Position numbers and translations under genes: made by a program. This document shows, one piece after another, positions 44,844 through 64,000 of a DNA stretch of 64,000 nucleotides. The stretch covers positions 25,176-89,175 of the forward strand of contig CAZCJE010000005.1 of assembly GCA_964498805.1 (NCBI GenBank), read 5' to 3'. Numbering within the stretch: the first letter of the stretch is position 1; each line of letters opens with the position of its first letter. The notes beneath the pieces are model-generated. The model had not been told where the DNA came from. It ran no database searches and saw only the letters and a program-made list of their open reading frames with translations. The DNA is from an uncultured Thiothrix sp. (GTDB lineage Bacteria > Pseudomonadota > Gammaproteobacteria > Thiotrichales > Thiotrichaceae).

Positions 44844-44870
44844 AAGCGCGGCTTTATAGCCGCGCTTTTT
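44844..44870. terminator. Bidirectional terminator between the convergent GlsB-family gene and wzc
   Basis: AAGCGCGGCT-TTAT-AGCCGCGCTT followed by TTT; abuts the wzc stop codon. Confidence 0.8.
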
Positions 44871-46854
44871 ATGTTTCCAAATCGTGCAACACACAAAAGT
44901 TGCTATTAGGCAGACGTTCCAGTTGAGTTACCAACCGTTCCAAATCGGTTATTAAGGTTTGCCGTTTCAGCACATTGACCAAAATCATATCGCTGATATC
45001 CAAATCCGGAATCACTTCCGGGTGCATTTTGACATCACTAGATAAAATGAAAACTAGATCATAACTGCCTAAAAGACCATTAATTAATTGAGGAAAATGG
45101 TTGGCACGATTAAACACCGAAAATACTTCATCGGCCTTGAGCAGAGAAATTGACAGATTTTTTTGATTGGTCTGATTAACGGCAATAGGGCTAACTGACT
45201 CACCAATGAAAAAACTATCGGCCTCATTCAGTTTAAACAGCTTTTTAACCGCAGCATGGTCTTCATCCAAAGCCAACAGAACCACTTTTAATTCCCGTTG
45301 CAGGAAAAAAGCCAGCAAGTTATGCATAAACGCCACATGACGCTTGTCTTCACCTAATGCCAACAAGCTCAGGACTTTCAGACTGTCGCGTACTCGCCCA
45401 GCCTGTAAGGAAACCAGCGTGTTGCGTGAAGGCAGAAAGCGGGTTTCACCAGGGCTAGCTTTGATTAACATACGTTGGTCAAGCTTTTCCAACAGAGCCG
45501 ATTTCTGTCCGGGTAATAGGGTTTGAATGTCCTCGCGAATCTTCACGGTTTTATCACGGAAATCCAAAATACCCGCCACACTAATCCCCATGAGTAACGC
45601 AATCACTCCCCCCATACTCAGATTCACCAAATAATTGGGGGAATAAGCCAGCTGTGGTATTGAAGCCTGTTCAAGCGTGGCAATATTATTAGCATTGATG
45701 CCATTAGCGGCATCAATCTCTTTCAAACGGGTTAGCAAACTGTCATACAAAGCCTTTTCCACATCCAAATCACGCCGCAATTCATTGTAAGTGGTCATAT
45801 TGGCAACATAGGTCTGGTATTTCTTGCTGGATTTCTCCATCAATTTCTTGATTTCAGCTTCCTGCTTTTTGCTGGCTTCATAAGAAAGCTGTAGATTTTG
45901 CTGGAACTTAGCCGTTTCTTGCGCCAATTTGCTTTCAGTTTCACTAATCTGCTGACGCAATTGCAGCATGGCAGGGTAATCAGGTTTGTAGATTTCGAGT
46001 TTTTTCTGATAATCCGCCTGCAATTCGGCCAAACGGGATTTCAGCGTTTGCATGAATTGATTGGTGAGCACTCCATTAGTGCTACTCACCGCACTGTTAG
46101 AGGATTTTTGTAACTCGGTTTCGGCCACAATGCGGTCTTTTTCCGCCTGAATCACTTCTTGATCTAGCTTGACCATATTTTCAATATAAGGATTGGTGTC
46201 ATCCTTGGTCACAACCATGTCACGCGAGGCGGTAAAGCGTTGTAAACTGGCTTCCGTTTTTTGCAAAGAAGCCCTAACATCATTGATTTTACCGATAATT
46301 TTTTCTTTAGCCTGTTTAATATTGCCTTCATAATCATCAATGCTAAAGCGGCGGTATTCCTCTACAAAGGTATTAGCCACTTGTGCCGCTAGCGTTTTAT
46401 CCGGACAGGAAAAACTCACATACACAATCTGCGAATTATCCACGGGTAACACTTGCAACTGATTTTGGAAGGTTTTCATGAGTTCCGCTTGCAGTTTGAG
46501 CGGGTCTACGGTGTCAGGCTGTTGCGCACCTAGGCCTAAACGCGCGAGCACACTTTGGCGAGTAATCTGCGCTTGCGTTAGTTTCAGCTTGTCAATAACA
46601 CGCTCGGCAAGCAATTCGCTGCCGAGGATTTCATATTGTGTCTTATAAAAAGCGCTTTCATTGAGCTTAAACGCTTCACCCGTGGTCGGGTATTTCAGAA
46701 AATCCGTCGCCTCTGGTGCTAATCGAAACGATGCCGTTGCCTTATACATAGGCGCAGTCATAAAGGTAATGCCTGCTACCACCGCAAAGATCAGTAACGT
46801 TATCAGCAAGATCAACCACTTGCGATAAGCTATGGTAACGAATAATCTGTACAT
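44869..46854 (-). CDS. Wzc/GumC-type polysaccharide co-polymerase with degenerate kinase domain
   Basis: TM, PMYKATASF, YKTQYEILGS, long coiled coil (PDYP), LYDSLLTRLKE, SPN + second TM; C-terminal domain lacks intact Walker motifs. Confidence 0.85.
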   Translation of the reverse strand: MYRLFVTIAYRKWLILLITLLIFAVVAGITFMTAPMYKATASFRLAPEATDFLKYPTTGEAFKLNESAFYKTQYEILGSELLAERVIDKLKLTQAQITRQSVLARLGLGAQQPDTVDPLKLQAELMKTFQNQLQVLPVDNSQIVYVSFSCPDKTLAAQVANTFVEEYRRFSIDDYEGNIKQAKEKIIGKINDVRASLQKTEASLQRFTASRDMVVTKDDTNPYIENMVKLDQEVIQAEKDRIVAETELQKSSNSAVSSTNGVLTNQFMQTLKSRLAELQADYQKKLEIYKPDYPAMLQLRQQISETESKLAQETAKFQQNLQLSYEASKKQEAEIKKLMEKSSKKYQTYVANMTTYNELRRDLDVEKALYDSLLTRLKEIDAANGINANNIATLEQASIPQLAYSPNYLVNLSMGGVIALLMGISVAGILDFRDKTVKIREDIQTLLPGQKSALLEKLDQRMLIKASPGETRFLPSRNTLVSLQAGRVRDSLKVLSLLALGEDKRHVAFMHNLLAFFLQRELKVVLLALDEDHAAVKKLFKLNEADSFFIGESVSPIAVNQTNQKNLSISLLKADEVFSVFNRANHFPQLINGLLGSYDLVFILSSDVKMHPEVIPDLDISDMILVNVLKRQTLITDLERLVTQLERLPNSNFCVLHDLET

Positions 46855-46899: not shown

Positions 46900-48438
46900 T
46901 TATGGGGTCAATGCCAAAGGTCTGCGCATTTTGACCTCATTACAGGCAACCGCATTGGTTAATAGTTCCTTGCGATAAATCTGCCATGCAGGCACCGGCG
47001 CATTAGCGGCATTGAAATTCCATTGCTGCATCACTTGAGTCAAACGTTGTAGCAATTGGGCAGCGGATGCACTGTTTTTCAACGCAGGATTGGCTGCACA
47101 GCTTTTAACTTTGGCCAGTAGCTGCATGTCATCCAAGCCCTGATGGAACATTTCCATGCGCAAAGACGCTAAAATTTGATTGCTAGCCGGGTCCCAATAG
47201 AACAAGGTTCCACGCTCTTCATTGCCAGTTTCACCGATAGATTGAATAAAAGAACCGTTATCCCAATCGGATACTGACCAAAAATGATAACCCTCGATAC
47301 CAAAGTAACCCATGAGCCAGCCTAGGCTGCGGATACGTTGTGGATTACCCTGAATATCATGAAAACGGTTAGCGTATAGATAAATGCGGTCACGTTGCTG
47401 TTTAGCCGTTTTCACCGCATTTTCACTCAAGGCATTGATATTGACTGTCCAGATATCCGCAATATCACCTAAGGCAGCGGCGGGTTCTTCGGTCAATTCC
47501 AAGGCAATGCCCGGCGCACATTGGCGGACACTGCTGTAACTATAAGCCACCTCTGGATAATTTATCGGCAATGGCTCATCCCATAACTTATACACAAAGT
47601 TATTGCCTAGCTTGCTACGGTTTCTCAGTTTGCTAGCAAGCGTATTGATGTAATTGCATTCCTCATTCAACCATTGCGCCCGGGTCAAACCTGCACTGAC
47701 TAATGTGTCAGACAAGGTGCTATTACGCGAAAATTGTGCACGAGATGACAAACGAACCGTCTGGAAATTATCCAAAACATATTGTTCTAACGGGCTTAAA
47801 GCGTCACTTTTCAGATATTGCTTGGGCAGAATCACCGAATTGAAGTCATAGGCACGCATCTTCTGTAACAAGGATTGCACTATTGCATCCGGAATATCGG
47901 TACGCTTGAATAACAAATTGCCTTGTAAAGTAATGTTAGGTTTATCCAAAGTCAGTGGATAGACGGTCACTTTTAGTTCACCGCGATAGCTAACAACACG
48001 ATTTTCCAGCACCTGTACTATCCAGCGATAAGTACCTGCGGGAGTACCGGCGGGGATAGAGGCTTTAATCAGTAATTGGTTGGTATTGCTTTGAATACTG
48101 GTGGTGGCATTGTTAGCCAGCGGTTGCAAAGCATCCATCGCCCCGCTAGTCGCTGTCCCCTGGATGACTTGATAAGTCTGTAAACTAATATTGGAAACAC
48201 TTTGCGCAACCCAATTAATCTGGGCATTTTTGCCTTCCATTGCGTCTAAACGCAATAACAAGGATTCAGACGCATTGCTAGCGGTTTCCAACTCGACACT
48301 AGGTGCTAACGTAGCCCACGTACTGGATTCTGGCACAAAGCGTTTGACCACACCGGCTTGTGCTAACTGGGTACAACCGAGTAATGAACACAAACCGACT
48401 GTACCAACCCAACGCCGCCAGTTTTTATTTATTAACAT
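46900..48438 (-). CDS. Exported DUF4091-containing protein, GH123-like putative glycoside hydrolase
   Basis: Signal peptide; GTPAGTYRW, YKLWDEP, DIWTV, ASLRMEMFHQGLDDMQLL resembles the DUF4091 C-terminal signature. Confidence 0.65.
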   Translation of the reverse strand: MLINKNWRRWVGTVGLCSLLGCTQLAQAGVVKRFVPESSTWATLAPSVELETASNASESLLLRLDAMEGKNAQINWVAQSVSNISLQTYQVIQGTATSGAMDALQPLANNATTSIQSNTNQLLIKASIPAGTPAGTYRWIVQVLENRVVSYRGELKVTVYPLTLDKPNITLQGNLLFKRTDIPDAIVQSLLQKMRAYDFNSVILPKQYLKSDALSPLEQYVLDNFQTVRLSSRAQFSRNSTLSDTLVSAGLTRAQWLNEECNYINTLASKLRNRSKLGNNFVYKLWDEPLPINYPEVAYSYSSVRQCAPGIALELTEEPAAALGDIADIWTVNINALSENAVKTAKQQRDRIYLYANRFHDIQGNPQRIRSLGWLMGYFGIEGYHFWSVSDWDNGSFIQSIGETGNEERGTLFYWDPASNQILASLRMEMFHQGLDDMQLLAKVKSCAANPALKNSASAAQLLQRLTQVMQQWNFNAANAPVPAWQIYRKELLTNAVACNEVKMRRPLALTP

Positions 48439-48452: not shown

Positions 48453-49748
48453 CTAAGAATGTACCGGTACGGCTTTAGCCCTATAAAGCCGACTTACGTG
48501 CCCCAGCACGACCGTATTTTGAATAATGAGTACCAGACAAGTAGCCAGCGCACTGCCCACTAATCCTCCTATAGCGGTTAAGGCTACGGTAGCGACCAAT
48601 GCAAACAGCCCTGTCAGAAAGGTAATATTCCGCAGTAACTTTTCCTGCCCAACCATAATCAGCAATTGTGCAATCGGCCCAGTCACCGCATTCACCAGAT
48701 AACCTAGCGATAAAATCACCAAGATATACCAGAACTGACTGAAACCTTTACCAAAAATCGCCATTAACCATGAAGAGCATAGCACCATTAAGATAAAAGC
48801 GGGTAATGCATACCCTGTAGAAACTTTAATGGTATGCACCAGTACAGGCCAAATTTGCTCGTATTCGCCACGCTTGTGTAAGGCAGCAAAACGCGGCGAT
48901 ACCACCTTATTAATGGCCTGTAAGATTAATCCTAATGAAGCGGCGGTACGGTGTGCAGTGGCCAGTACCGCTACATCGCCTGCGGATAACCACATACCGG
49001 TGACAATTTGTCCTGCCCAACGAATGGTTTGATCCGTCAGCATAATCAGCACTAAAGCCGTTGTACCCGACCATAACTGTTCACGAGTAACCGTTAGTGG
49101 CAACTCTTGATCAATTTGGCGGCCGGACTGGTAAAGGCTATACACCAAACGCAAAGCAACTAGCATGGTGGCAATATTACCCGCCACAAAAATCCACGCC
49201 CCTTGCGAGGCAAACTGCAATTGACCTTGCCACCACCACACACTACCGGCTAATAAAGAAAACAGCGGCAATAACAGGTTTAGCACTACCACCGTCGCTA
49301 ATGGCTTATTCAAACCTTCCAACATATTGCCGCAAGTCATGGAAATCGTCATAGGCACAATAGCCAGCGCCATAATGCGCAAAATAGGCACTAATTCCGG
49401 CTGCTGGAAAAACCAATGCGCCACAGGGTTTGCCAGCAAAGCCAAACCTAGCGCGCCCACACTTGAAGCGGCTGTTACCGCGAGCAAGGCACGGCTAATA
49501 ATAGTGCCGCGTAAATAACCCTCCTGCGGTTGATCATGCGCACCTAGCAATCGCACCACAATACGGTACAACCCCAAAGAACCTAAACCGGATAAAATAG
49601 AAGTGGCTGCAAAACCCAGAAAAAATAGTCCTACTTCATGTTTGCCTAACTGCCGCGACAAAAACACAAAAAATAGGAATAACACGCCTGCCGAGGCTAA
49701 GCGCAGAATCAAAACCATCGATACCGATTTAAACAGGTTTTTGCTCAT
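48453..49748 (-). CDS. Wzx/MOP-family polysaccharide flippase
   Basis: About 12 TM segments; PRFAALHKRG, IFGKGF, LLIMVGQEK typical of Polysacc_synt flippases. Confidence 0.85.
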   Translation of the reverse strand: MSKNLFKSVSMVLILRLASAGVLFLFFVFLSRQLGKHEVGLFFLGFAATSILSGLGSLGLYRIVVRLLGAHDQPQEGYLRGTIISRALLAVTAASSVGALGLALLANPVAHWFFQQPELVPILRIMALAIVPMTISMTCGNMLEGLNKPLATVVVLNLLLPLFSLLAGSVWWWQGQLQFASQGAWIFVAGNIATMLVALRLVYSLYQSGRQIDQELPLTVTREQLWSGTTALVLIMLTDQTIRWAGQIVTGMWLSAGDVAVLATAHRTAASLGLILQAINKVVSPRFAALHKRGEYEQIWPVLVHTIKVSTGYALPAFILMVLCSSWLMAIFGKGFSQFWYILVILSLGYLVNAVTGPIAQLLIMVGQEKLLRNITFLTGLFALVATVALTAIGGLVGSALATCLVLIIQNTVVLGHVSRLYRAKAVPVHS

Positions 49749-49749: not shown

Positions 49750-50616
49750 TTAGAGCACCTGATAGCCGTAATGAGCTAATCTTTCCGCAGCTACGGCATT
49801 GATCTTGGCAATATCTTCACCACTCAAACGCTTGAGGCTAGACGCATTCATATTCTGAATGGTCGAATTATAACCTGTTACTGAAAGAGTCTGTTGTTGA
49901 ATATCTTTAAGTGGCTCGGCGGAAATACCAATAAAATCGCACACTTGTGCCAATATTTTATCTGGGCTCTCCACCAGTTCTTCATACTGAATCACCAATA
50001 AGCGTTGTAACTTATCCGCATGTGCTTGTAGATATTGATCACTTTCCACCCATTGTTGCGCACACAATTCAATCGGGTAACGCTCAGTGGTGATCGCGGT
50101 ATTAGCCTTACTTACCGGCGATTTACGCCGAATCCCTTCCGAAACGGTATAACCATTACGCACAATGTAGATGAAATAAGCAGGCTGGAAATATTTCTCG
50201 AGAAAACTGACCCGCGCCACATTGGAAATCGACTTTTCCAAAAACACCGGCTTACGTTTGTCATACCAAAAGCCCCAACTGCGCTGGATGCGCTTAGCAA
50301 TAGCCGCATCGGTTTGGGCAGTTTGTTCCAATTGTGGCAAACACTTATGCCACATACGTACCCAACCGCATGCTTCCGGAGTCTGCATACCATCGGTAAG
50401 AAACGCGCCTTCGGTAGGCAATGAAGCGACATCAGGATGACGCGACAGCACTGTACTCAACAAAGTCGTGCCAGAATTGTAGCATCCCAGCACAAACACC
50501 CACTTTTGCGGGGCAGCCTGCGGCCCTAACAAAGCTGTTATCTGCTTACCCATGGAGCTTCTACCCAACCAGGCTTTTACTTTTTTCCACGATTTTATAT
50601 TAGCCACGGTACGCAC
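49750..50616 (-). CDS. PAPS-dependent sulfotransferase (ST2)
   Basis: 5'-PSB VFVLGCYNSGTTLL, FLEKS, 3'-PB FIYIVRNG, IQYEELVESP. Start uncertain. Confidence 0.88.
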   Translation of the reverse strand: MRTVANIKSWKKVKAWLGRSSMGKQITALLGPQAAPQKWVFVLGCYNSGTTLLSTVLSRHPDVASLPTEGAFLTDGMQTPEACGWVRMWHKCLPQLEQTAQTDAAIAKRIQRSWGFWYDKRKPVFLEKSISNVARVSFLEKYFQPAYFIYIVRNGYTVSEGIRRKSPVSKANTAITTERYPIELCAQQWVESDQYLQAHADKLQRLLVIQYEELVESPDKILAQVCDFIGISAEPLKDIQQQTLSVTGYNSTIQNMNASSLKRLSGEDIAKINAVAAERLAHYGYQVL

Positions 50617-51520
50617 TCCAATAATCCTGTTGGGTTAAATTATGCAATTGGCCTTTTTTTATATAACCAGATGCGTATTTTAAAATCTCACGGAATAGCC
50701 AAGCCTGATCCAAACCATCAATCATGTTATGTGGATGCATCCATAAATGAGCCACCTGTTTATGTTCTACCGCATGATCAATAATAGCCTGCCAACGTTT
50801 TAAAATCATAAAATTGGGCGGTAAACGATATTGGCGACGGAATGCCATTAAACTACCACCGGGAATTTTTAAAGGTGAAGCGGCTTTAGGGTGAGGTTGG
50901 GAAACAGTGCCTTCAATATATTTTAAAGCCTCAGCAGCCCAACGCGGCTTCATATCAAAATACAACGGCATATCCCGATAAGCCTGAATACCCGCTTCAG
51001 CCAATAAATCCGTGTAACCCACACGATTACGTGGAAACACCATGGTTTTAATATCCAGCCCTTGCCAAGTTGCCCAAGCATTAATGCCTGCTAGCTCTTT
51101 TTCAATAGCGTCCCGAGAAGTTAGGGATTCTTGAAAAGGTAAATGGGTAAAACCGTGTGTGGCAATTTCATGTTGTTGGTGTTCTCGAACACGGGCAAAA
51201 ATATCCGGTGCGAACCAGCCTTCAGTATTATTTTCTTGCTCTACTTGACGTTTAAAATGATCTAACCAATTTTTACCCGCAAATAAACGTTCAGAGAACC
51301 ATATTTTTTGGCGTAAATAATCTTGTTCACTTAAGGTAAAAGCTGCCACAAATGCAAAAGTAGCCTTAAGATTATAATCGGCTAAGGTTCGTAAAATACT
51401 ATCATAAGCCTTATGCAGGTTCTGATGTGTTAATACCTGATCATGAGAAGGCCCGATACGATCAGCAAATCCCCATTTGCCTTCACAATCCAGCGATATA
51501 ATAAAACATGCCTTTTGCAT
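50600..51520 (-). CDS. Polysaccharide deacetylase (CE4/NodB-like)
   Basis: IISLDCEGKWG, ATFAFVA, HEIATHGFTH, MVFPRN, HLWMHPHN. Confidence 0.85.
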   Translation of the reverse strand: MQKACFIISLDCEGKWGFADRIGPSHDQVLTHQNLHKAYDSILRTLADYNLKATFAFVAAFTLSEQDYLRQKIWFSERLFAGKNWLDHFKRQVEQENNTEGWFAPDIFARVREHQQHEIATHGFTHLPFQESLTSRDAIEKELAGINAWATWQGLDIKTMVFPRNRVGYTDLLAEAGIQAYRDMPLYFDMKPRWAAEALKYIEGTVSQPHPKAASPLKIPGGSLMAFRRQYRLPPNFMILKRWQAIIDHAVEHKQVAHLWMHPHNMIDGLDQAWLFREILKYASGYIKKGQLHNLTQQDYWSAYRG

Positions 51521-51545: not shown

Positions 51546-52817
51546 TTACGATTTCATTTTAATCGTCAAATGCCATGCGCCATACAATGCTATTCCCAAA
51601 TAGATAGCTATATACTCATTATAAAAACCACGGTAAAGGTTTTGTTCTACAAAAACACTCAACCATGCAGCTACTAGCCATAGCAAATACCGCTCAGCAA
51701 ACGAGTTTTTACTGGCTTTGCGTAATGCCACCCCAATCAGCCACAGAAAAAAGCCATAAACAAATAACAATACTAATAAACCCACAATACCATTAGCTGT
51801 CAACTGATCCAGAAACAGATTATGGATAATATGAATTTTGCCAATTTCATTTTCAATAAAAACTATACCATGACCCTGACCTAAAATAAAACTAGAAGTA
51901 CTCGCAGCTAATGCTTGTTGCGCACCTAGTAAACGTCCTGAGGCACTTTGAGCTTGAATACCCTCCCCGACAAACCCAGCAAAAATCGCTTCCCCTACTG
52001 GTGAAAAAAACAGTATCCCTGCCATTAAGGTCATAGCTAATAAATGAAAGGCAATATATTTACTACGATTAATATAGTAAGCTATCAGAAAAGCCCAGCC
52101 AGCAAATAATCCTAACCAACCACTACGGGATTGCATGATTAAAATGCCAACCACTAATAAAAAAATAAATAATAAACGCCAACGTTTATGCAGCCATTCA
52201 CTCAATAAACCTGGAATTAACAACATGGTTAGAGAAGGTATTAACAGTGTACCCAATTTACCATCACTTAATGGCACACCTGTTGCTTTTCGAATAGGAA
52301 TACGAATACCAAATAAACGTCTACCCATTTCAGAATGAATACCTGTTGAAACCAGCCCAAAACCTTCTAGTATAATTAATATAGATACCACAACTGCACT
52401 GAATAAAATAGCTAGCATTACCCATTTAATGCCATGCTGCGGGTTATTTTGTAAATAACTGACGACTAAGAGTGTTACTATTAGCGTTGTTACACGAGCA
52501 AACACATATTTAAATTCGACCAAAGATTCAAAGCGCATACCATTGATCAAATCAAATACAATTAATAGAAAAAAACATACAATAACGGTATTTATATTAA
52601 TATCCAGTTGTAGATCAATTTTACGAGTAGCAATCTGTAATACTAAAAAACCAAATAAAAAAATAACACTCAATGGTGCTAAAAAGCCTAGCACTGTTTT
52701 GGGTAAAGGAAAAAACGGCACAATGAACAGAAAAAATAGCACACTGATGTCAAAAACAGTGAATGTTGGTTTTTCTTGCCCAAGTGCCAACGCTTGCATA
52801 TTAAAAAGGTAATTCAA
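51546..52817 (-). CDS. Wzy polymerase / O-antigen-ligase-family (Wzy_C) membrane protein
   Basis: About 11-12 TM segments, MQSRSG, LGQGHG, HNLFLDQLTANGIVG. Confidence 0.8.
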   Translation of the reverse strand: MNYLFNMQALALGQEKPTFTVFDISVLFFLFIVPFFPLPKTVLGFLAPLSVIFLFGFLVLQIATRKIDLQLDININTVIVCFFLLIVFDLINGMRFESLVEFKYVFARVTTLIVTLLVVSYLQNNPQHGIKWVMLAILFSAVVVSILIILEGFGLVSTGIHSEMGRRLFGIRIPIRKATGVPLSDGKLGTLLIPSLTMLLIPGLLSEWLHKRWRLLFIFLLVVGILIMQSRSGWLGLFAGWAFLIAYYINRSKYIAFHLLAMTLMAGILFFSPVGEAIFAGFVGEGIQAQSASGRLLGAQQALAASTSSFILGQGHGIVFIENEIGKIHIIHNLFLDQLTANGIVGLLVLLFVYGFFLWLIGVALRKASKNSFAERYLLWLVAAWLSVFVEQNLYRGFYNEYIAIYLGIALYGAWHLTIKMKS

Positions 52818-55724: not shown

Positions 55725-57389
55725 TTAATTGTTTTTAATAAACCCTAATTGGGTTAGTTTTTGTAAAATGTGTTGCGCACAATCATCCGGTGTTAAGGCC
55801 GTGGTATCGAGCACCATTTCCGGATTAACGGGAACTTCATAGGGGTCATCAATACCCGTGAAACCCTTTACCAACCCCGCGCGGGCTTTAGCATACAAGC
55901 CTTTACGGTCACGCCGTTCGCATTCACTTAACGGTGTAGCCACGTGAATTTCCACAAACCCACCCACTGCACTGATAGTTTCACGCACTTCGCGACGAAT
56001 AGCAGCATACGGTGCAATCGGTGCACAAATAGCAATACCGCCATTTTTGGTAATTTCACTGGCAACATAACCAATGCGGCGGATATTCAGATCACGATGT
56101 TCCTTGGAAAAAGACAACTCACTAGATAAGTTTTTGCGTACCACATCACCATCTAGCAAGGTAACAGGCCGTCCACCCATTTCTAATAACTTAATGCGTA
56201 AGGCATTAGCGACCGTGGATTTGCCCGCACCTGATAAACCGGTAAAAAATATGGTCAAGCCTTGTAAATGGCGTGGTGGGTAAGTTTTCTTCAGTTCGGC
56301 CATGACTTGCGGATAGGCAAACCACTCCGGTACCGGCAAATCTTCATGCAAATAACGCTGGAATTCGCCCGCAGATAAGGCTAAAGCCGCTTCAGAAGTG
56401 CTAATTTCATTTACTGGTCGATAGGCTTGCAGAGCAGGTACGTACTGCATAGCAGCGGGTGTGACAATGCTTATACCGATTTCCTCGGCATATTCGTTAA
56501 CCAGTAATGGTGCAGCAGCCGGGTGGTAGAAAGATTCAGCCCCTTCTTCAGTAACCGGACTGCCTAAACTTTCCTGTACAATGAAATGGGTACAGGCATA
56601 ATTTTTGCGGATGAGGGCATACCATAAGGCTTCGCGTGGCCCCGCCAAACGTACCGCCAGCGGTAATAGGCTGAGCATTACGCTACTTAGCGCATAGGTA
56701 GGCAAAATCTGCTCATAACAGCGCACACGGGTAAAGTGATCAATAGAGCGGCCTACACCACCTAACCCTACCACCGGCTGGATAAGTAATGGAGTTTGTA
56801 AACTTTCCGCCGCCTGCGCTGTTAGCGCTTGTTCGGCCCGATGCATCACTTCCCGCGTGTGGTATCCGAGTACTTGTTGCCAGCCTAATTGTTCAAAGCG
56901 CGCCTTTAACTCAGCAGGCGTGTGCCGGTATTGGCGATAATCATAATGCAGCGGCAACTCAACTTTTTCCAACTTACCGCCCAAATAAACCTTGCCGGTA
57001 CGGTGCAAGAGATAATCCACACCAGGATGATTAGGGTCAGTAGTACCAAATACCGCTTGCGCTTCGGCTTTTTTATCCGCTATCCAACAATCTTCAATGA
57101 GCATGAATGCTAACAACACGCCTTCACTATCACGTAAGGCAATGGTTTGGCCAATATTGAGGTTATCGGCAAACGTTTCGCTTACATCCAGCGTAATCGG
57201 CATAGGCCATAATTGACCATCGGCCAAGCGCATGGAATGTAAAACACGGTCATAATCGGTTTGTTTAAGAAACCCTTGCAAGGGTTTGAAAGCGCCAGTC
57301 AACAACATTTCCACGTCGCATACCTGACGATCGGTAAGATCCCAAGATGCCATTTGCTTGACTAGTGATGAAACAGCCTTGTTATACAT
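55725..57389 (-). CDS. cysC: Sat-CysC fusion: intact adenylyl-sulfate kinase with degenerate ATP-sulfurylase domain
   Basis: Kinase: FFTGLSGAGKST, LLDGDVVR, RDRKGLY, FTGIDDPYE. The sulfurylase scaffold is present (WPMPITL, DHFTRVRCY, AGPREA, RKNYACTHFIV) but the catalytic motifs are altered. Confidence 0.9.
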   Translation of the reverse strand: MYNKAVSSLVKQMASWDLTDRQVCDVEMLLTGAFKPLQGFLKQTDYDRVLHSMRLADGQLWPMPITLDVSETFADNLNIGQTIALRDSEGVLLAFMLIEDCWIADKKAEAQAVFGTTDPNHPGVDYLLHRTGKVYLGGKLEKVELPLHYDYRQYRHTPAELKARFEQLGWQQVLGYHTREVMHRAEQALTAQAAESLQTPLLIQPVVGLGGVGRSIDHFTRVRCYEQILPTYALSSVMLSLLPLAVRLAGPREALWYALIRKNYACTHFIVQESLGSPVTEEGAESFYHPAAAPLLVNEYAEEIGISIVTPAAMQYVPALQAYRPVNEISTSEAALALSAGEFQRYLHEDLPVPEWFAYPQVMAELKKTYPPRHLQGLTIFFTGLSGAGKSTVANALRIKLLEMGGRPVTLLDGDVVRKNLSSELSFSKEHRDLNIRRIGYVASEITKNGGIAICAPIAPYAAIRREVRETISAVGGFVEIHVATPLSECERRDRKGLYAKARAGLVKGFTGIDDPYEVPVNPEMVLDTTALTPDDCAQHILQKLTQLGFIKNN

Positions 57390-57496: not shown

Positions 57497-58894
57497 TTAA
57501 TCTTCGTTCAAGGCATGGTTAACCATGTTATTCACAGGTTTCATCAGGTAAGTCAGGAAGGTACGTTCACCGGTTTTGATAGCCACTTCTGCGGGCATAC
57601 CCTGCACCAGTTCCAGTTTGTGCTTGGCCAAGTCGGCGATTCCTTCTGGCTTGATTTTGATGCGTGCCTTATAGAATTGAGCACCGTTGTTGGGATTGGA
57701 GAAAGTATCAGCAGAAACTTGAATCACCTCCCCTGGTGTTACCTTCATGAAGGATGAGGAATTAAAGGCAGGGAAACGGATATCAGCCTCTAAACCCGCA
57801 TGAACCTTATCGATATCGCTAATATTGACTTGTGCCTCAACTTCAAAACCATCGATTTTCGGTACAATTTCCATAATTTTGCCACCCGGAGGAACAACGC
57901 CACCTTTGGTGTGATATTCCATACCGATCACGGTACCGTTTTCAGGAGCCACAATCGTGGTACGAGATAAACGGTCGGTGACCGCATTCAGACGATTTTT
58001 CAGATCAGCAATATTCAAACGGACCTGTGCAAGTCTGTCAGCCATTTCTTTCTTACGGTTATTGTTTTGCAATACCAATTGCTGCTCGGCTTCACCCATT
58101 TGCACTTTAAGACTGGATTTGGCGGTTTCCAACTCAGCAATATCACTATTGACCGACAGCACACCACGTTCCATTTGATTCAACTCTTGATTACCAATCA
58201 ATTTACGATTAAACAAATCCTGCAGGTTCTGGTGATCCTTAGCGTAAGCATTAGCCAGATTACGTTGACTTTGAATTTGTTTATCCGTGCCAGCCATTTG
58301 TTCTTTCAATTGTTGGATGCGCTGTTTTAACACGCCGGTTTCTGCACTCACCGCGGCCATTTCCACTTTAAACTGCTGACGTTCATCTGCCAGAATTTCA
58401 GCCGCACGCTCTTTAGCTTGCGTCGGATTAATGAGTTCTGCCGGGAAGTTAACGGTGGATTTGCCTTCTAATTGCGCATTCAAACGCGCTTCCAAACCCA
58501 AATAGCCTAACAATTGTTCATATACCATGCCCTTATCGGTTTGCGCTTCAGTCGGGTTAATGACCATCAGCTTTTGCCCTTTTTCGACATGATCACCATC
58601 ATCGACAAAAATGTCTTGAACCACGCCGCCTTCACGGTGCTGGATGATCTGCTTTTTCATCTGCACTTCAATACGACCGGTGGCCATAGCATGACTGCCT
58701 AACGGAGCAACCCCCGCCCACACCGCAAAAATACCAAAGACAACGACCAGTACAATTAAACCTAAGCGCTGGTAAGCAACATCCTCTGTTTGCAGGGGAA
58801 TGACATTATCCGATTTAGCCGGAGCCGGTAGACCAGCGGCAGCCGTGGCAGTAGCGGGAACTTTTGCCGTTTCAATTTTTGCCAGTTGTGCCAT
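57497..58894 (-). CDS. Type I secretion membrane fusion protein (HlyD/AprE/PrtE family)
   Basis: TM, IIQHREGGVV, coiled coil, IVAPENGTV, GGVVPPGGKIMEIVP, GMPAEVAIKTGERTFLTYL. Start 58894 has AGGAGGT. Confidence 0.95.
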   Translation of the reverse strand: MAQLAKIETAKVPATATAAAGLPAPAKSDNVIPLQTEDVAYQRLGLIVLVVVFGIFAVWAGVAPLGSHAMATGRIEVQMKKQIIQHREGGVVQDIFVDDGDHVEKGQKLMVINPTEAQTDKGMVYEQLLGYLGLEARLNAQLEGKSTVNFPAELINPTQAKERAAEILADERQQFKVEMAAVSAETGVLKQRIQQLKEQMAGTDKQIQSQRNLANAYAKDHQNLQDLFNRKLIGNQELNQMERGVLSVNSDIAELETAKSSLKVQMGEAEQQLVLQNNNRKKEMADRLAQVRLNIADLKNRLNAVTDRLSRTTIVAPENGTVIGMEYHTKGGVVPPGGKIMEIVPKIDGFEVEAQVNISDIDKVHAGLEADIRFPAFNSSSFMKVTPGEVIQVSADTFSNPNNGAQFYKARIKIKPEGIADLAKHKLELVQGMPAEVAIKTGERTFLTYLMKPVNNMVNHALNED

Positions 58895-58895
58895 C

Positions 58896-60620
58896 TTACT
58901 TACCTCCTGTACTGGCATCACGTGCGGGTAATTGACTGGTTTTGGCAGCTAACTGCGCCATCACTTGCTGACGATCACCAAATAAGGTGACGGCACCAGC
59001 AACCAGTACCAAAATTTTGTCAACTTGACTCAAAACACCAGGGCGGTGAGAAATAATGACTACCGTCGTGCCTTTTTCGCGCAAAATTTGTAAGGCTTTG
59101 AACAAGGCCAATTCACCAGCTTCATCCAGATTGGAATTAGGTTCATCCAGGACAATCAAGCTAGGGTTGTCATACATAGCGCGTGCCAAGCCAATGCGTT
59201 GACGCTGACCACCAGAAAGAACCCCGCCACTTGGGCCAATCACAGTGTCATAAGCATTAGGCAATTGCAGAATCAATTCATGCACACCAGCCATTTGCGC
59301 CGCCGCCAGGACTTTTTCGGCATCGACTTTATTGAAACGAGCAATATTTTCCGCCACGGTACCATCAAATAATTCAACATCTTGTGGCAAATAGCCAATG
59401 AAGCGCCCTAAAGCATCGCGATCCCAATGGCGGATATCCGCACCATCTAAGCGCACTTCACCAGCTGCTTGTGGCCACAAACCCAATAAAGCCCGTACTA
59501 AGGAAGATTTACCAGCACCACTTGGGCCGACTACTGCCAAAGATTCGCCTGCTTTCAGGCCAAAGGTAATATTGCGCAATACAGCCTCTTTGCCACCCGG
59601 TGGCACCACAGTCAGGTGATGTAAGCCCAAATGACCTTGTGGGGTAGGCAGTTCCATGCGTTGAATATCAGCAGGATACGCTTGCAACATAATATTGAGG
59701 CGTTCCCAAGATTGGCGAGCAGCAGCAAATTGTTTCCACGCACCGACCAATTGATCCAACGGTGACAAGGCACGCCCTAACAAGACAGAACCGGCAATCA
59801 TCATGCCGCCACTCAATTCCATATTAATAACCAAATAAGCCCCCAACCCCAGAATCAGCGATTGGTTGAGCATACGGAAACTTTTTGACAGGGTAGCCAA
59901 TGCACTCGAACGATCATTGCCCAAACCTTGCCACAACAAGGCTTCATTATGGGATTGCTGCCAACGTCTGAAGATACCGCGTTTCACGCCTAAAGCGGTG
60001 GCAACTTCGGCATTGCGCATACTGCGTTCGAGTAACAAACTGGCTTGGGCAGATTTGCCATGGGCTGTTTTTAATATACTGGAGGTAGATTTATCCACCC
60101 ACAAAGCCAACAGGAACGTCATAATGCCTGCGCCGACCCCAAACCAGCCGTACCAGGGATGGAACATGAACATGACAGCAAGGTAAAACGGGAACCACGG
60201 CGCATCAAAAAAGGCAAATACACCCGTACCCGAGATAAAGTTGCGAATGGTATTAAGATCATTCATCGGTTGCAGGGAAGCATTGCGCGGATTATGCAGC
60301 GCGTGGCGGAACATCATATCCACCAATCGCGATTGCATAGCAACATCCATACGGGTACTGATACGGGCTAGAATACGCGTTCGCGCAAACTCCAGTATTG
60401 CCATGACCGCAAACATGGTGACCGTAATCAGCGTTAACATTAATAAAGTGCTTTCACTACGCCCTGCGACTACGCGGTCATACACCTGCAACATGTAAAT
60501 CGTTGGGGTAAGGAATAACATATTGATAAAAAAGCTGAACAGGCCGACATAGAAGAATGACTTCTTAGACAGCATCAGCAGCTTTTTCAATTCAGATGGT
60601 GCGGCTTGATTTGGACCCAT
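58896..60620 (-). CDS. Type I secretion ABC permease/ATPase (PrtD/AprD/RsaD family)
   Basis: YMLQVYDRV, FFDAPW, GPSGAGKSSL, LSGGQRQRIGLAR, LDEPNSNLD; no C39 domain. Confidence 0.96.
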   Translation of the reverse strand: MGPNQAAPSELKKLLMLSKKSFFYVGLFSFFINMLFLTPTIYMLQVYDRVVAGRSESTLLMLTLITVTMFAVMAILEFARTRILARISTRMDVAMQSRLVDMMFRHALHNPRNASLQPMNDLNTIRNFISGTGVFAFFDAPWFPFYLAVMFMFHPWYGWFGVGAGIMTFLLALWVDKSTSSILKTAHGKSAQASLLLERSMRNAEVATALGVKRGIFRRWQQSHNEALLWQGLGNDRSSALATLSKSFRMLNQSLILGLGAYLVINMELSGGMMIAGSVLLGRALSPLDQLVGAWKQFAAARQSWERLNIMLQAYPADIQRMELPTPQGHLGLHHLTVVPPGGKEAVLRNITFGLKAGESLAVVGPSGAGKSSLVRALLGLWPQAAGEVRLDGADIRHWDRDALGRFIGYLPQDVELFDGTVAENIARFNKVDAEKVLAAAQMAGVHELILQLPNAYDTVIGPSGGVLSGGQRQRIGLARAMYDNPSLIVLDEPNSNLDEAGELALFKALQILREKGTTVVIISHRPGVLSQVDKILVLVAGAVTLFGDRQQVMAQLAAKTSQLPARDASTGGK

Positions 60621-60684: not shown

Positions 60685-60801
60685 CGCTGTAACTTATCAC
60701 GTCCATAAATAGGCTTATGTGACAACGGTCACGCCAAATGTTTATTTAATAAACGCTTTTATATAAAAATTTTATTGATTAAAAATCATTCAATTTATAA
60801 T

Positions 60802-63800
60802 TCAACGTAAATCAATATCCCAGCGCGTCACAATGATTTCATGTGCCCCATCCGAATCACCCGATAAATTGACCACTCCAGAGTCCTCTTGCATCCGTAA
60901 GAGTAGGTCATAATCCGCATTGAAATTATTGGCTTCGATTCCGGCATTATTCACGTAGGCATCAATCGCCAAATAAGTGCTGCCACCGTAATAAAATTGT
61001 ACCGCCATAGAGGTGTAATCGGCTTTACCATCCCCCGCCATACCGGCATCCACCAATAACGCGGTAATATCGTACTGCTTGTAGGCTCGATCAAGTGCAA
61101 GATTGGCAGCATCCCACAAGCTCATCGCTTCCGGGTCTGGGTCATTAAAACGACTAAACAGGACATCGTAGGACTGACCACTGGTACGGGTCACGCCAGT
61201 TTGAGTGGCAATATCCAATACCTCTAACGGTGCACCAGCATACAGATCGGCGGATAATCCATCCGCATACCAATCCAGATAAATCACATCATGGGTAGTA
61301 TCAGCGGCTACCGCGCCAACTTCATTCAAAGCTCGCTGGTAAGAATAAAAATCAGCGATAGTATCCACCGTATCTTCGCTTATACCCGAGTCCCCAGCCG
61401 TAAAAAAAAATTTATCCTGGCCATCACTACTTCCCGGCATGCCTAAAGTGCCACCGCGCATCACATCTACACCGCGACCGGCAAAAAATAAATCATTACC
61501 GGCATCACCTTGCAAGGTATCATTACCTGCACCACCGGCTAGCCAATCATTACCGCCACCACCTGATAAAATATCGTCACCCTCGCCACCGGATAACAGA
61601 TCTTGTCCTTCACCGCCGCTCAAGGAATCATGCATACCGCCGCCGAATAGCACATCATCGCCTTGACCTGAGGTAATAATATCGTCGCCATCACCGCCAT
61701 AAGCCACCGCACCTTTGCCGGTGAAATCGGTTGGTAATGTACTGAGAGTCGGTAATTGTTTGAGAACTACCTCGCCTTGATTATTGTCACCCAGATCAAT
61801 CCGATCATTGCCTTCACCACCAACTACACATTCATTAGCACTACTTGTACCCATGAATTGGTCATTACCCTTGCCTAGATTAATGGCAAACCCAACTTGG
61901 CCGCCCTGAATCGCATCATCCCCTGCTGAACCTTGCAGAATATCCCCCGCGACTATTTGCAACGTGTCATTGGTCAAATCCTGTCCACGATAAATATCAT
62001 CGTAACGATCCAAAATCTCGACCGTCACCTGACCTAATTGCGCAGATTTAATCTGGCTAAAGTTATAATTACCGGATTCAGCCAATAACAACAGATTGCC
62101 TTGGGACATACCCAAATCGGTAAAGTTGCCGTCCCAAGCCGTCGACAAATCCAAGGTAAAGGTACCGATATTATCAATCCCACCTATGGAAGACATAGCG
62201 ACACCACGCAAATCCAACCCCATCTCAGCGGTTTCTTTGCTCGCATCCAATAAGGTTTTGGTAGCAGATAACTCATTACCGAATAAAAACTCTACACCGT
62301 GATGTAAATTGTTGTTATCCAACTTGAGTACACGCACATTTTCCACATCCAAGCGTTCTATATCGCTAATGGTTAGGCTGGTCAGATCATCATCGCCCAT
62401 TAGATCATGCACAATACTCAGATAATCGCTGCTACTCTCTGAACCCTTGATGCTACGGGTAAACGTCAGCTGGTTTTCCACTTGGCCTAAAATTAAGGAA
62501 TCAGCCTGGTTATAGACAAAGTTGCGGAAGTTGTAATCGCCATCATTTAATTTACTTAGATTCAGGCTACCGCCTTCAATTTCCAAGGTCGACTGACCAA
62601 ATCCACCCGCGGCAAAAACAGTTTGGATCGTTGCTGCATTAGACAAGGTATCGACCAACTTTTGATTGACCTGTAAGGTGGTTTCCACCGCTGTTAATTG
62701 CTGTAGTCGATCAAAACCGGTTAAACCAAAGGCACTGAGATTAAAAGTATCGCCAGCATTAGCCGCTAACTCGAGAGTAGTGGAACGACCTTTAGCCCCT
62801 AATAAATACTCAACACTTTGCAAAGTTTGGGCATTAACTCGGATTTTGCCGCCTTCAACTCGATTTTCCAGCCCTTCAATACTTTCGAGTACCACATTAC
62901 TCACATCCAGCAAACTACCATTGCCCGCATAAACAATCAGATCATCAGCCGGACGCCCTTTGGTATCATAGGATTCAGTGCCACGAATAATCTGGAAGGT
63001 ATCCAAAGCCAAACCGGTATCACCGACCTTGATAGTGGTAGCGGCGGTTTTGTCTTCGGCGCTATAGCCCACCTGCAAAACTTCTATATCCGATATCGTA
63101 TCGTTAGTGACATTCATCAGGTTAAGCGTGGTACTGCTAGTAATTTCTAAGGTATCCATGCCCTGCCCACCATTAATACCTAGCGCATTTTGCACATCCT
63201 GCATGTTTTCAAACAAAATGCGATCATCGCCAAGGCTGCCATCAACACTATCTTTGCGCCCGCCACCGGCTACCAAAATATTGTTTTCCGCATTGCCTAC
63301 CAGTACATCGGCCTGAGCGGTACCGCGTAGATGTTCAACATTGTACAAATACATGCCCGCACTAACCGACACAAACCCGGTGGAAAGATCAGCCTTAATG
63401 CCGGTCGTTAACTTACTGAAATCAACAGTATCTTCACCATAGCCACCATCAATCGTCGCTGTGAGAAGTTTTTTGACCACGAATACATCATCGCCACTTG
63501 TGCCGGTTACATCAAAACGCTGTTTGGCATCGTTTAAAGTAATGTAGTTGCCCGGATTGACATTGGCTGGAATCTTGCCATCAATCCAGTCTTTACACAG
63601 TTGCACGGATTCACTGCTTAAACCACAGCGATCCAACACCTGCCAAGCATTGGGTGAACCATCGCCGTGAGCCACATAATACAAACCGATCTCGGCTTTG
63701 TTATTCAGTAATAAAGCATCATCGCCTTGGGCACCGTTTAACATCGCCACCGCCAGTTCTGCAGACGTGAAATGCGCCAATTCCGTTACCCAGTAGGCTA

Positions 63801-64000
63801 ACCCTTCTGCATCTGGGTCACGGTTAAAGACATTACGGTAAATAGCCGTCACATAAGCAGTCGGTTCCAGATTGCCATATAAGGCTTGTGCTTCAGGTTG
63901 CTCGGCAAAACTGCTGGCAATGGCATTCAAGGTCAGATTACTGTTTAACCAGTACTGGAAACCGCTTGCATCCGGTGCGCGGTCAAAAAAAGCTACATAC
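60802..64000 (-). CDS. Large DUF4214/SapA-like, RTX-repeat type I-secreted surface (S-layer-like) protein; 5' end lies beyond the window
   Basis: The frame stays open to 63999 (YVAFFDRAPDASGFQYWLNSNLT precedes the ORF-track start). YVTAIYRNVFNRDPDAEGLAYW and NNKAEIGLYY are DUF4214-type. About 10 GGxGxDxL nonapeptides; adjacent T1SS. Confidence 0.88.
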   Translation of the reverse strand, partial: YVAFFDRAPDASGFQYWLNSNLTLNAIASSFAEQPEAQALYGNLEPTAYVTAIYRNVFNRDPDAEGLAYWVTELAHFTSAELAVAMLNGAQGDDALLLNNKAEIGLYYVAHGDGSPNAWQVLDRCGLSSESVQLCKDWIDGKIPANVNPGNYITLNDAKQRFDVTGTSGDDVFVVKKLLTATIDGGYGEDTVDFSKLTTGIKADLSTGFVSVSAGMYLYNVEHLRGTAQADVLVGNAENNILVAGGGRKDSVDGSLGDDRILFENMQDVQNALGINGGQGMDTLEITSSTTLNLMNVTNDTISDIEVLQVGYSAEDKTAATTIKVGDTGLALDTFQIIRGTESYDTKGRPADDLIVYAGNGSLLDVSNVVLESIEGLENRVEGGKIRVNAQTLQSVEYLLGAKGRSTTLELAANAGDTFNLSAFGLTGFDRLQQLTAVETTLQVNQKLVDTLSNAATIQTVFAAGGFGQSTLEIEGGSLNLSKLNDGDYNFRNFVYNQADSLILGQVENQLTFTRSIKGSESSSDYLSIVHDLMGDDDLTSLTISDIERLDVENVRVLKLDNNNLHHGVEFLFGNELSATKTLLDASKETAEMGLDLRGVAMSSIGGIDNIGTFTLDLSTAWDGNFTDLGMSQGNLLLLAESGNYNFSQIKSAQLGQVTVEILDRYDDIYRGQDLTNDTLQIVAGDILQGSAGDDAIQGGQVGFAINLGKGNDQFMGTSSANECVVGGEGNDRIDLGDNNQGEVVLKQLPTLSTLPTDFTGKGAVAYGGDGDDIITSGQGDDVLFGGGMHDSLSGGEGQDLLSGGEGDDILSGGGGNDWLAGGAGNDTLQGDAGNDLFFAGRGVDVMRGGTLGMPGSSDGQDKFFFTAGDSGISEDTVDTIADFYSYQRALNEVGAVAADTTHDVIYLDWYADGLSADLYAGAPLEVLDIATQTGVTRTSGQSYDVLFSRFNDPDPEAMSLWDAANLALDRAYKQYDITALLVDAGMAGDGKADYTSMAVQFYYGGSTYLAIDAYVNNAGIEANNFNADYDLLLRMQEDSGVVNLSGDSDGAHEIIVTRWDIDLR
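61420..61830 (-). repeat. RTX calcium-binding nonapeptide repeat block
   Basis: GGEGNDRID, GGDGDDIIT, GQGDDVLFG, GEGQDLLSG, GEGDDILSG, GGGNDWLAG, GAGNDTLQG, DAGNDLFFA, GRGVDVMRG. Confidence 0.9.

Follow-up and report, generated by a model that had tools for sequence, protein, structure and literature searches.

The surface layer (S-layer) protein RsaA of Caulobacter crescentus is secreted by the type I secretion system (T1SS) RsaD/E and anchored on O-antigen. Another T1SS substrate, Psh (PP_1794) of Pseudomonas putida KT2440, is an RTX-DUF4214 protein that is exported by an adjacent AprD-type T1SS and has been proposed to coat the O-antigen and to mask phage receptors, its O-antigen binding having been modelled in silico; in Gammaproteobacteria, genes of the Psh type are typically found close to those for O-antigen and for a T1SS (bioRxiv 10.64898/2026.09.02.748959). 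Here we analysed a 64,000-nt stretch of DNA, hereafter the window, from an uncultured Thiothrix sp. (contig CAZCJE010000005.1, positions 25,176 to 89,175), in which the genes for an RTX/DUF4214 protein and a PrtD-type T1SS form an island with a predicted sulfated-polysaccharide operon. We consider it probable, although well short of certain, that this island is switched by cyclic AMP (cAMP) and a CRP-type regulator and co-produces T1SS-secreted, Ca2+-binding solenoid proteins and a sulfated polymer that act together at the cell surface.

Each element of the island has a precedent. The Sinorhizobium meliloti exp cluster for galactoglucan (exopolysaccharide II, EPS II) encodes ExpE1, a T1SS-secreted Ca2+-binding protein, and the regulator ExpG binds palindromes upstream of several of its operons (PMC1403797). 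The Synechocystis xss (synechan) cluster contains two sulfotransferases, Wzx, Wzy and a polysaccharide co-polymerase (PCP), with the gene for the outer-membrane polysaccharide exporter (OPX) located elsewhere (PMC8205485), and the sulfated capsular polysaccharide cluster of Vibrio sp. KMM 8419 includes genes for 3'-phosphoadenosine 5'-phosphosulfate (PAPS) and specifies a repeat that is a sulfated disaccharide (PMC11641403). In the RaxST/RaxX/RaxABC system of Xanthomonas with RaxPQ, dedicated PAPS synthesis is joined to a T1SS and a sulfotransferase. Thiothrix cells are known to build sheaths of polysaccharide and to form rosettes (PMC9319827). In the searchable literature we found no described system in which a T1SS-exported RTX-DUF4214 coat protein occurs together with a dedicated operon for a sulfoglycan, PAPS supply by a kinase-only enzyme and a switch made of CRP and a cyclase, and it is this combination that is new. 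An earlier reading of the window, made from its sequence only, had held that the locus has no described equivalent, which was too strong in view of ExpE1/ExpD1D2 (PMC1403797), Psh (bioRxiv 10.64898/2026.09.02.748959) and the sulfated-polysaccharide clusters (PMC8205485, PMC11641403).

The island resembles these systems in part. Like RsaA, its RTX protein is a Ca2+-binding, beta-helical protein of about 1,000 aa with a helical N-terminal region followed by a C-terminal solenoid and a neighbouring PrtD-type T1SS. Unlike RsaA, with which it has no sequence homology, it begins with a DUF4214 domain and is one of two paralogs, its expression is predicted to be CRP-inducible, and a predicted sulfated Wzx/Wzy polymer takes the place of O-antigen; a lattice, in the case of the island, is conjectural. 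Psh shares with the island an RTX region and DUF4214 in one polypeptide, an adjacent AprD/PrtD-type T1SS, nearby surface-glycan genes and a gammaproteobacterial host, and among precedents for a role of DUF4214 in association with glycans it is functionally the closest. However, the domain order of Psh is reversed (N-terminal RTX, C-terminal DUF4214), it lacks the approximately 500-aa extra solenoid of the island protein, its glycan is a pseudaminic-acid-capped O-antigen, and no CRP/cyclase module has been described for it. The exp cluster likewise places a T1SS (ExpD1/ExpD2) and its Ca2+-binding substrate within an exopolysaccharide cluster under a common regulator acting on several palindromes, but ExpE1 is small and NodO-like and has neither DUF4214 nor a long solenoid, EPS II carries no sulfate, and a MarR-type regulator combined with PhoB contrasts with the CRP-type regulator and cyclase of the island. 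The xss and Vibrio clusters have sulfotransferases embedded among polysaccharide genes, as here, although neither is linked to a T1SS or RTX protein; they also differ from the island in its PAPS supply, an APS (adenosine 5'-phosphosulfate) kinase with a dead sulfurylase domain, and in its set of one glycosyltransferase, one priming transferase and a deacetylase. In the Rax system, sulfation is directed at a small secreted peptide and the ATP-binding cassette (ABC) transporter has a C39 peptidase, whereas the island sulfotransferases lie in a Wzx/Wzy operon and its ABC transporter has no C39 domain.

Organization of the island

Thirteen minus-strand open reading frames (ORFs), all co-oriented, occupy positions 44869-64000 of the window. 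As the sequence-only reading had stated, each carried its expected domains, all above Pfam gathering scores (Table 1). The RTX protein gene (RTX2) is followed by genes for the ABC permease/ATPase and the HlyD-family adaptor (membrane fusion protein, MFP), then by the APS kinase gene, and then by a block running from a family 4 glycosyltransferase (GT4) to the PCP in which intergenic gaps were -17 to 45 nt, a tight packing that includes overlaps. Sewage contigs matching the window showed that the island extends about 13 kb past window position 64000, where a second DUF4214/RTX paralog (RTX1) is followed by a divergent gene for a Crp-family regulator and then, in this order, by genes for a TPR protein, a class III cyclase with a CHASE2 domain and a protein with a FecR domain.

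Table 1. Features of the island, with positions in the window and the basis of each assignment.
Feature	Position	Strand	Basis
RTX2	60802..64000	-	DUF4214 4e-11 and HemolysinCabind 3e-18 (Pfam); ORF open to window end
CRP-type operator CGTGACCGTTGTCACA	60718..60733	-	Upstream of ABC-MFP operon
T1SS ABC permease/ATPase, PrtD/AprD type, without C39 peptidase domain	58896..60620	-	TIGR01842, 727 bits (cutoff 510)
T1SS HlyD-family periplasmic adaptor (MFP)	57497..58921	-	TIGR01843, 339 bits; Pfam HlyD_3
Two-domain APS kinase (PUA_2, ATP-sulfurylase, APS_kinase)	55725..57389	-	Pfam; NCBIfam PRK05537
CRP-type operator TGTGAAGTTAATCACA	55628..55643	-	Upstream of GT4; perfect 16-mer match to consensus
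GT4 glycosyltransferase, first gene of glycan operon	54408..55568	-	Pfam Glycos_transf_1 and Glyco_transf_4; 386 aa by gene caller
Small Bac_transf phosphoglycosyl transferase (PGT, priming)	53740..54396	-	PF02397, 3.7e-59
Sulfotransferase 1 (ST1)	52801..53715	-	Sulfotransfer_3 8e-11, Sulfotransfer_1 5e-9
Wzy_C-family membrane protein	51546..52817	-	PF04932, 3.5e-10; same operon as Wzx and PCP
Polysaccharide deacetylase, like carbohydrate esterase family 4 (CE4)	50600..51520	-	Polysacc_deac_1 1.3e-5, weak: 25.6 bits (cutoff 23.1)
Sulfotransferase 2 (ST2), NSGTT loop	49750..50616	-	Sulfotransfer_3 2.8e-22 (also Sulfotransfer_1)
Wzx flippase	48453..49748	-	Polysacc_synt, 3.5e-13
GH123_cat (former DUF4091) protein	46900..48438	-	PF13320 6.4e-7, 29.5 bits (cutoff 23.1)
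PCP (Wzz and GNVR)	44869..46854	-	Pfam; TIGR03017 (EpsF-like) below cutoff
G+C-rich hairpin (10 bp, 7 GC)	44844..44867		Terminates the 13-gene run

Conservation of the linkage between exporter and glycan genes

Orthologs were collected at graded distances, and pairwise ABC identities defined seven lineages in two clades: clade A, comprising the window species, L007, L092, L095 and L096 (ABC 76-86% identity), and clade B, comprising Thiothrix winogradskyi (L091) and a metagenome contig (L093). The T1SS was directly followed by the APS kinase and then by glycan genes in 5/5 clade-A lineages, whether or not a methyltransferase was interposed. Where contigs reached, the core order GT4, priming transferase, sulfotransferase, Wzy, deacetylase, sulfotransferase was the same, with orthologs at 59-71% identity: those of GT4 (64-68%), PGT and ST1 (61-64%) were present in L007, L095 and L096, and those of Wzy, the deacetylase and ST2 in L095 and L096. 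These last two lineages kept the PGT-ST-Wzy-deacetylase-ST-Wzx order and additionally carried an epimerase/dehydratase gene trio and a third sulfotransferase. The glycan operon core (window 50000-56000) has a G+C content of 0.37-0.42, compared to 0.45-0.50 in the RTX/T1SS genes and flanking chromosome, and a hypervariable, horizontally swapped glycan cassette was considered for this reason; it was largely rejected because the core enzymes are orthologous across clade A.

For comparison, a metagenome contig search with the ABC protein yielded 80 background loci, the matches listed being generic PrtD-type transporters of about 50% identity. Among these (32 of them at least 12 kb), an APS kinase was nearby in one and a TPR-sulfotransferase in two, and Wzx/Wzy/PGT homologs were found in none. 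The coupling of RTX/T1SS and glycan genes was thus kept in clade A, missing from clade B and rare among generic T1SS loci, and on this comparative evidence it is a conserved clade-level trait, neither universal nor a chance neighbourhood.

Downstream of the adaptor gene, five lineages had a gene for a methyltransferase (about 510 aa, MethyTransf_Reg domain) that was missing from the window species. It directly followed the adaptor in four of them (L007:16536-18083, L092:13168-14706, L095:4234-5775, L096:8381-9931), and in T. winogradskyi (L091:14789-16318), without glycan genes there, it came after a few small ORFs.

A common CRP-type operator

Consensus TGTGA-N6-TCACA boxes were found before RTX1, the ABC-MFP operon and the glycan operon, and a fourth box, with one mismatch, before the FecR-cyclase-TPR operon. 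The centre of CGTGACCGTTGTCACA lay 29.5 nt upstream of a -10-like hexamer, TAAGTT (60696-60691, with TG before it), and that of TGTGAAGTTAATCACA 29.5 nt upstream of TAAAGT (55606-55601) and 67.5 nt from the GT4 ATG. The same 29.5-nt distance from box centre to -10 element recurred at three promoters, which corresponds to class II (-41.5) geometry. The exact core GTGA-N6-TCAC occurred only twice in the 64-kb window, in these two boxes, and three times in the 21.7 kb of sewage contig L003, compared to 0.16 expected; all three L003 matches were intergenic (Crp/RTX1, RTX2/ABC and APS kinase/GT4).

Boxes were kept at fixed start-codon distances in L007, L091, L092, L093, L095 and L096. The Crp/RTX box was present in 6/6 lineages with sequence covering that region and the RTX/ABC box in 7/7; the GT4 box was found in the four lineages with the region available (including L007, L095 and L096), always 67.5 nt from the start codon although the preceding gene differs. 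In otherwise divergent intergenic alignments, the half-sites and the -10-like element were the main invariant blocks. Half-sites were invariant in the alignment of the ABC region, as were a few short stretches near the start codon, and box and -10 element alone were conserved in that of the GT4 region.

The adjacent regulator has a CRP phosphate-binding cassette (FGELS...RSAAV) and a recognition helix reading TRESISR. Its best solved relatives were Crp-family proteins (mycobacterial, Thermus and Corynebacterium), with E. coli CAP matching too, although one unrelated protein with a cyclic nucleotide monophosphate (cNMP) domain outscored the Crp-family regulators among its PDB matches. The cyclase has a KYMGD motif, the lysine of which suggests specificity for ATP. 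Taken together, these features predict a single cNMP regulon that would take in RTX1, the exporter and the glycan operon and feed back on the sensor operon, the binding and start sites being predictions. Co-regulation of RTX1, exporter and glycan genes is well supported by the pattern of boxes, and we infer binding by the CRP-type regulator with cAMP as its ligand. Judged from gene order and promoters, the link between the T1SS/RTX genes and the glycan genes exceeds adjacency, as it combines the 5/5 clade-A arrangement with a common CRP-type operator matching the adjacent regulator.

We also considered that the two parts are juxtaposed without partnership, such that an RTX-adhesin/T1SS/CRP module and a polysaccharide locus answer the same signal as separate biofilm or attachment components and the glycan is not an anchor. 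Clade B argues for this. T. winogradskyi has the same FecR, cyclase, TPR, Crp, RTX, ABC and MFP module followed by cadherin/Big_9 genes and no glycan enzymes, and the module in L093 probably also lacks adjacent glycan genes. Because the module stands without glycan neighbours in T. winogradskyi, its RTX proteins are not strictly dependent on this glycan. A box-like palindrome with an exact GTGA-N6-TCAC core, AGTGATGCTTATCACT (L091:16403-16418), lies 70.5 nt upstream of the 1566-aa cadherin/Big_9 protein adjoining the T1SS in that species; it suggests a broader adhesion regulon, and the local regulon may include other giant adhesins. The low G+C content of the glycan block (0.37-0.42, compared to 0.46-0.48 in the flanks), a homologous APS kinase of Thiothrix eikelboomii in a different polysaccharide locus without a T1SS, and the lack of a covariation signal for DUF4214 (below) point the same way. 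Such a juxtaposition fits poorly, however, with the fixed order of T1SS, APS kinase and glycan operon in 5/5 clade-A lineages at 59-86% protein identity, with the common operator geometry of the promoters, with the rarity of such adjacency among other T1SS loci, or with Psh and RsaA as T1SS surface proteins that use neighbouring glycans (modelled binding in the case of Psh). We regard it as rather unlikely.

The secreted RTX/DUF4214 proteins

RTX2 is 1077 aa in full length, its first 12 codons lying outside the window and being read from matching contigs. The AlphaFold2 model (mean predicted local distance difference test, pLDDT, 80.5) showed a helical N-terminal DUF4214 domain (residues ~1-151), a long beta-solenoid (~164-673), an RTX beta-roll (~692-860) and a C-terminal domain. 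The protein has Ca2+-binding repeats and an uncleaved C-terminal secretion region, and the genes for the PrtD-type ABC protein (Pfam ABC_membrane and ABC_tran) and the HlyD adaptor (465 aa with the start at 58894 chosen by the gene caller) lie immediately downstream. RTX1 measured 1130-1143 aa, apart from one contig call of 825 aa. Among near-identical sewage contigs (L001-L006, ~3005-6436), RTX1 length varied between 1130, 1133, 1138 and 1143 aa, and the 825-aa call, on L005, was without DUF4214; RTX2, exporter and glycan genes were 97-100% identical on the contigs where RTX1 length varied.

The sequence-only reading had likened this protein to T1SS-secreted S-layer proteins. The likeness stood as far as Ca2+ repeats and adjoining ABC and MFP genes are concerned. 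In Foldseek, the best PDB matches of the RTX2 model were RsaA chains (E 6e-8 to 6e-4), including the O-antigen-bound composite model 6z7p. The top RsaA match had an E value of 5.8e-8 and a probability of 1.0, but template modelling (TM) scores were 0.15-0.19 with a root-mean-square deviation above 26 Å, and the CyaA RTX domain scored similarly. The likeness did not extend to sequence, as a homolog search detected no similarity to RsaA, SapA or SlaA and a PDB profile search returned matches to the RTX block only, none of them RsaA.

At E<=1e-5 RTX2 had 132 homologs. Those matched along most of the length were about ten proteins of near relatives and one distant protein, P0100 (24% identity, 78% coverage), whose gene is surrounded by a T1SS, glycosyltransferases, a TPR-sulfotransferase and a SapC gene; the others matched the RTX block or the DUF4214 domain only. 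RTX orthologs diverge fast, at 30-60% identity compared to 71-86% for the exporter. When genome contigs were searched with a profile from the N-terminal and middle alignment, the matches listed covered only the N-terminal DUF4214 domain, at up to 37% identity over 192 aa, and came mostly from Marivita and other Alphaproteobacteria. In a background of 79 DUF4214 loci, a T1SS ABC gene was nearby in three and an APS kinase or sulfotransferase in none by tblastn, which is insensitive for divergent sulfotransferases; by this weak test, DUF4214 as such is not generally tied to sulfation.

The RTX proteins might instead serve the synthesis, export or processing of the polysaccharide without forming a coat, in the manner of ExpE1, the PrsDE-secreted glycanases PlyA/PlyB/ExsH or the AlgE epimerases. 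ExpE1 is a T1SS-secreted Ca2+-binding protein of the EPS II cluster controlled through palindromes (PMC1403797), and the RTX region of the island protein gave weak matches to EglC and AlgE entries. We nevertheless judge this explanation improbable. No catalytic domain was detectable in the 1077 aa of RTX2, where Pfam, NCBIfam and PDB profile matches were restricted to the RTX block and DUF4214, and the RTX proteins were rejected as enzymes on these grounds. In addition, the solenoid is continuous, a structural S-layer protein and the RTX domain of CyaA match it best, RTX orthologs persist in lineages without glycan genes, and the operon already contains a GH123-like secreted protein.

A predicted sulfated-polysaccharide operon

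The Wzx/Wzy pathway set was complete for priming transferase, flippase, polymerase and PCP, all above gathering thresholds. As one priming transferase is combined with one GT4, which would add the second sugar, the polymer should have a short repeat, probably a disaccharide. The Wzy_C-family protein is most simply the repeat-unit polymerase, a role as ligase being the alternative. ST1 has a GRSGTT loop that resembles a PAPS-binding loop and no signal peptide apparent by eye, so it is probably cytoplasmic. The deacetylase shows a HGFTH motif and also no apparent signal peptide, and its gene overlaps that of ST2. Because the deacetylase and both sulfotransferases lack apparent signal peptides and PAPS is available in the cytoplasm, these enzymes should act on the lipid-linked unit at the cytoplasmic face, prior to flipping by Wzx and polymerization by Wzy. 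The deacetylase/ST2 gene overlap is compatible with deacetylation followed by N-sulfation; PDB sequence searches with ST1 and the deacetylase returned nothing informative and did not discriminate between O- and N-sulfation. The GH123_cat protein, with a signal- or lipoprotein-like N-terminus (LLGC), is a candidate glycan-trimming hydrolase.

The last gene of the operon had been labelled Wzc by the sequence-only reading, but no kinase domain (including AAA_31/CbiA) was detected in the whole protein or in its last 212 aa. This C-terminal region gave one sub-threshold, evidently spurious match (PF20763, E 0.0096, 16.1 bits compared to a cutoff of 24.1), and the best NCBIfam match of the protein was of the kinase-less EpsF type.

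The APS kinase fusion proposed by the same reading proved half intact. The APS-kinase domain is full length (APS_kinase 4e-59) with the P-loop GLSGAGKST, whereas the ATP-sulfurylase-like domain, aligned to Penicillium chrysogenum ATP sulfurylase (1I2D), is degenerate at three motifs (QTRN to HTRE, HRAH to HRAE, and GRDHAG to QESLGS). The fusion also matches 3CR8, an APS kinase of Thiobacillus denitrificans that has been published as devoid of sulfurylase activity (reference 21 in PMC4373884). The two share the PUA/ATP-sulfurylase-like plus APS-kinase architecture and a sulfur-oxidizing host, and differ in that the island gene is embedded in a glycan/T1SS island. With its sulfurylase domain dead, the island kinase probably depends on APS from another source. 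As aprAB and sat are present in Thiothrix species (PMC9319827), a kinase-only enzyme could plausibly obtain APS from the dissimilatory AprAB/Sat pathway.

The joint presence of PAPS genes and sulfotransferases in one polysaccharide cluster has been described as the hallmark of sulfated-polysaccharide synthesis (PMC11641403). In its gene content the locus bears this hallmark, with PAPS supply and sulfotransferases joined to a Wzx/Wzy operon, which agrees with the pathway that had been assigned to it; the polymer itself would be expected to carry sulfate.

The sulfotransferases might instead act on protein, one or both of them sulfating the RTX proteins in the cytoplasm prior to type I export in the manner of RaxST/RaxX/RaxABC. 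The nearest solved relatives of ST2 are the CurM sulfotransferase (1.8e-10) and tyrosylprotein sulfotransferases (~1e-4), and the only link between a T1SS and a sulfotransferase in the searchable literature is that of Xanthomonas. Two unrelated loci (L010:1-23363 and L137:1-12238) combine a T1SS (ABC, MFP and the outer-membrane component OEP) with RTX or DUF4214 proteins, a SapC-family gene and a TPR-fused sulfotransferase in the absence of a Wzx/Wzy pathway. L137 also has a stand-alone APS kinase, and L010 several GT4s, a GT41 (OGT-like) gene and a DUF4214-methyltransferase; such loci may be instances of a recurring module by which type I secreted proteins are sulfated or glycosylated in the cytoplasm. 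In the island, however, both sulfotransferases lie inside the packed PGT-ST-Wzy-deacetylase-ST-Wzx operon, the order of which is kept in L095 and L096, neither has a TPR or other protein-docking domain, and clade B retains the RTX protein and T1SS with no sulfotransferase nearby. Sulfation of the RTX proteins is in our view very improbable.

Genomic context

Contigs identical to the window were recovered from sewage and wastewater metagenome assemblies. The closest named homolog of the ABC protein was from T. winogradskyi (72% identity), and those of the APS kinase were from Thiothrix (Thiolinea) eikelboomii and Thiolinea sp. (64%), which places the host among the uncultivated members of the Thiothrix/Thiolinea group. 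The remainder of the window, which has a G+C content of about 46% overall, is ordinary chromosome (trmD, rimM, ffh, radA, argJ, secA, lpxC, the dcw cluster, RNase P RNA and thiC). The RNase P RNA (class A, 354 bits; 37625-37973) and a thiamine pyrophosphate (TPP) riboswitch directly upstream of thiC (38858-38953) were likewise ordinary, and an Rfam scan detected no riboswitch or leader in the island. A 415-aa minus-strand ORF at 3963-5210 matched no Pfam family at E<=1e-5. The hairpin at the end of the island is common to a convergent plus-strand Transgly_assoc gene (44536-44790), which encodes a small GlsB/YeaQ/YmgE-like membrane protein.

Beyond the window, the FecR-domain protein that heads the sensor operon (L009:3921-5735) carries a signal peptide, and a low-complexity stretch of about 250 aa rich in Ser, Thr and Asn separates its FecR domain from the C-terminal region. 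The stretch is mucin-like and may be exposed at the surface or glycosylated. Upstream of the sensor operon, L009:1-3497 encodes a pair of very large GT4 proteins with multiple domains (1051 and 783 aa) that could be part of another glycan or protein-glycosylation system.

Discussion

In the mechanism we favour, the CHASE2 cyclase would sense a signal and cAMP-CRP would then bind the class II operators and induce RTX1, exporter and glycan operon in concert, with the APS kinase probably reached by read-through. The PrtD-type ABC/MFP pair would export both RTX paralogs, of about 1,100 aa, through their C-terminal type I secretion domain. At the same time, the APS kinase, fed by APS from elsewhere, would support sulfation by two cytoplasmic sulfotransferases, and the Wzx/Wzy operon would build a deacetylated, sulfated, short-repeat polymer, such that protein and polyanionic glycan arrive at the surface simultaneously. 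Outside the cell, the RTX proteins would fold with Ca2+ and associate with the sulfated polymer via the DUF4214 domain, Ca2+ bridges or both. The product would be an inducible composite coat in the form of a sheath, a holdfast or an S-layer-like layer.

A number of observations weigh against a partnership of this kind. The O-antigen binding of its closest precedent, Psh, rests on in-silico modelling. The sequence-only reading had drawn on the N-terminal anchoring of RsaA, yet DUF4214 bears no resemblance to the part of RsaA that binds O-antigen: modelled alone (pLDDT 85), it had no match to the RsaA N-terminal anchor and only weak phycobilisome-linker matches (E at least 0.3). This domain showed no signal of covariation with glycan gene content and was no better conserved than the rest of the RTX protein, and in L096 it is only 25% identical despite the same core glycan genes. 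Clade B, as described above, has the secretion module without glycan enzymes. At the level of regulation, RTX2 has no CRP box and is preceded by a strong terminator and its own AT-rich promoter, and no box was found before glycan genes within the available L092 sequence. Two export components were also missing. No TolC gene was seen among the annotated genes of the island and upstream loci, and neither the island nor the upstream loci nor the annotated regions of the window yielded a gene for an outer-membrane exporter (Wza/OPX, Poly_export); by analogy with the synechan system, the OPX gene may lie elsewhere.

Joint production of protein and glycan for a shared surface role remains the reading we consider probable, while a true S-layer anchored on the glycan, with the lattice and the physical protein-glycan contact that it would entail, is plausible but less likely than not. 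A more specific version, in which RsaA-like RTX/DUF4214 proteins would be cross-linked to a glycosaminoglycan-like, N-deacetylated, sulfated disaccharide polymer in a cAMP-induced composite layer, its sulfate tapped from dissimilatory APS via a kinase-only 'PAPS synthase', is speculative and we think it unlikely. Were it true, DUF4214 would be a general anchor domain for polyanionic glycans.

Few bacterial gene clusters for sulfated polysaccharides have been described, and one cyanobacterial study calls these polymers exclusive to cyanobacteria (PMC8205485); a conserved, compact operon in a gammaproteobacterial sulfur oxidizer would widen this picture. With one glycosyltransferase, one priming transferase, a deacetylase and two sulfotransferases, the operon is small enough to suit heterologous reconstruction. 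The dead sulfurylase domain of the APS kinase raises the possibility that surface sulfation is fed by energy sulfur metabolism. The island also provides a second, independent setting for DUF4214 function, beside Psh of P. putida. Finally, the common CRP operators link a type I secreted protein and a glycan in a regulon concrete enough to be tested, and this regulon might account for the onset of sheath, holdfast or rosette formation in the filamentous bacteria that cause bulking in wastewater plants.

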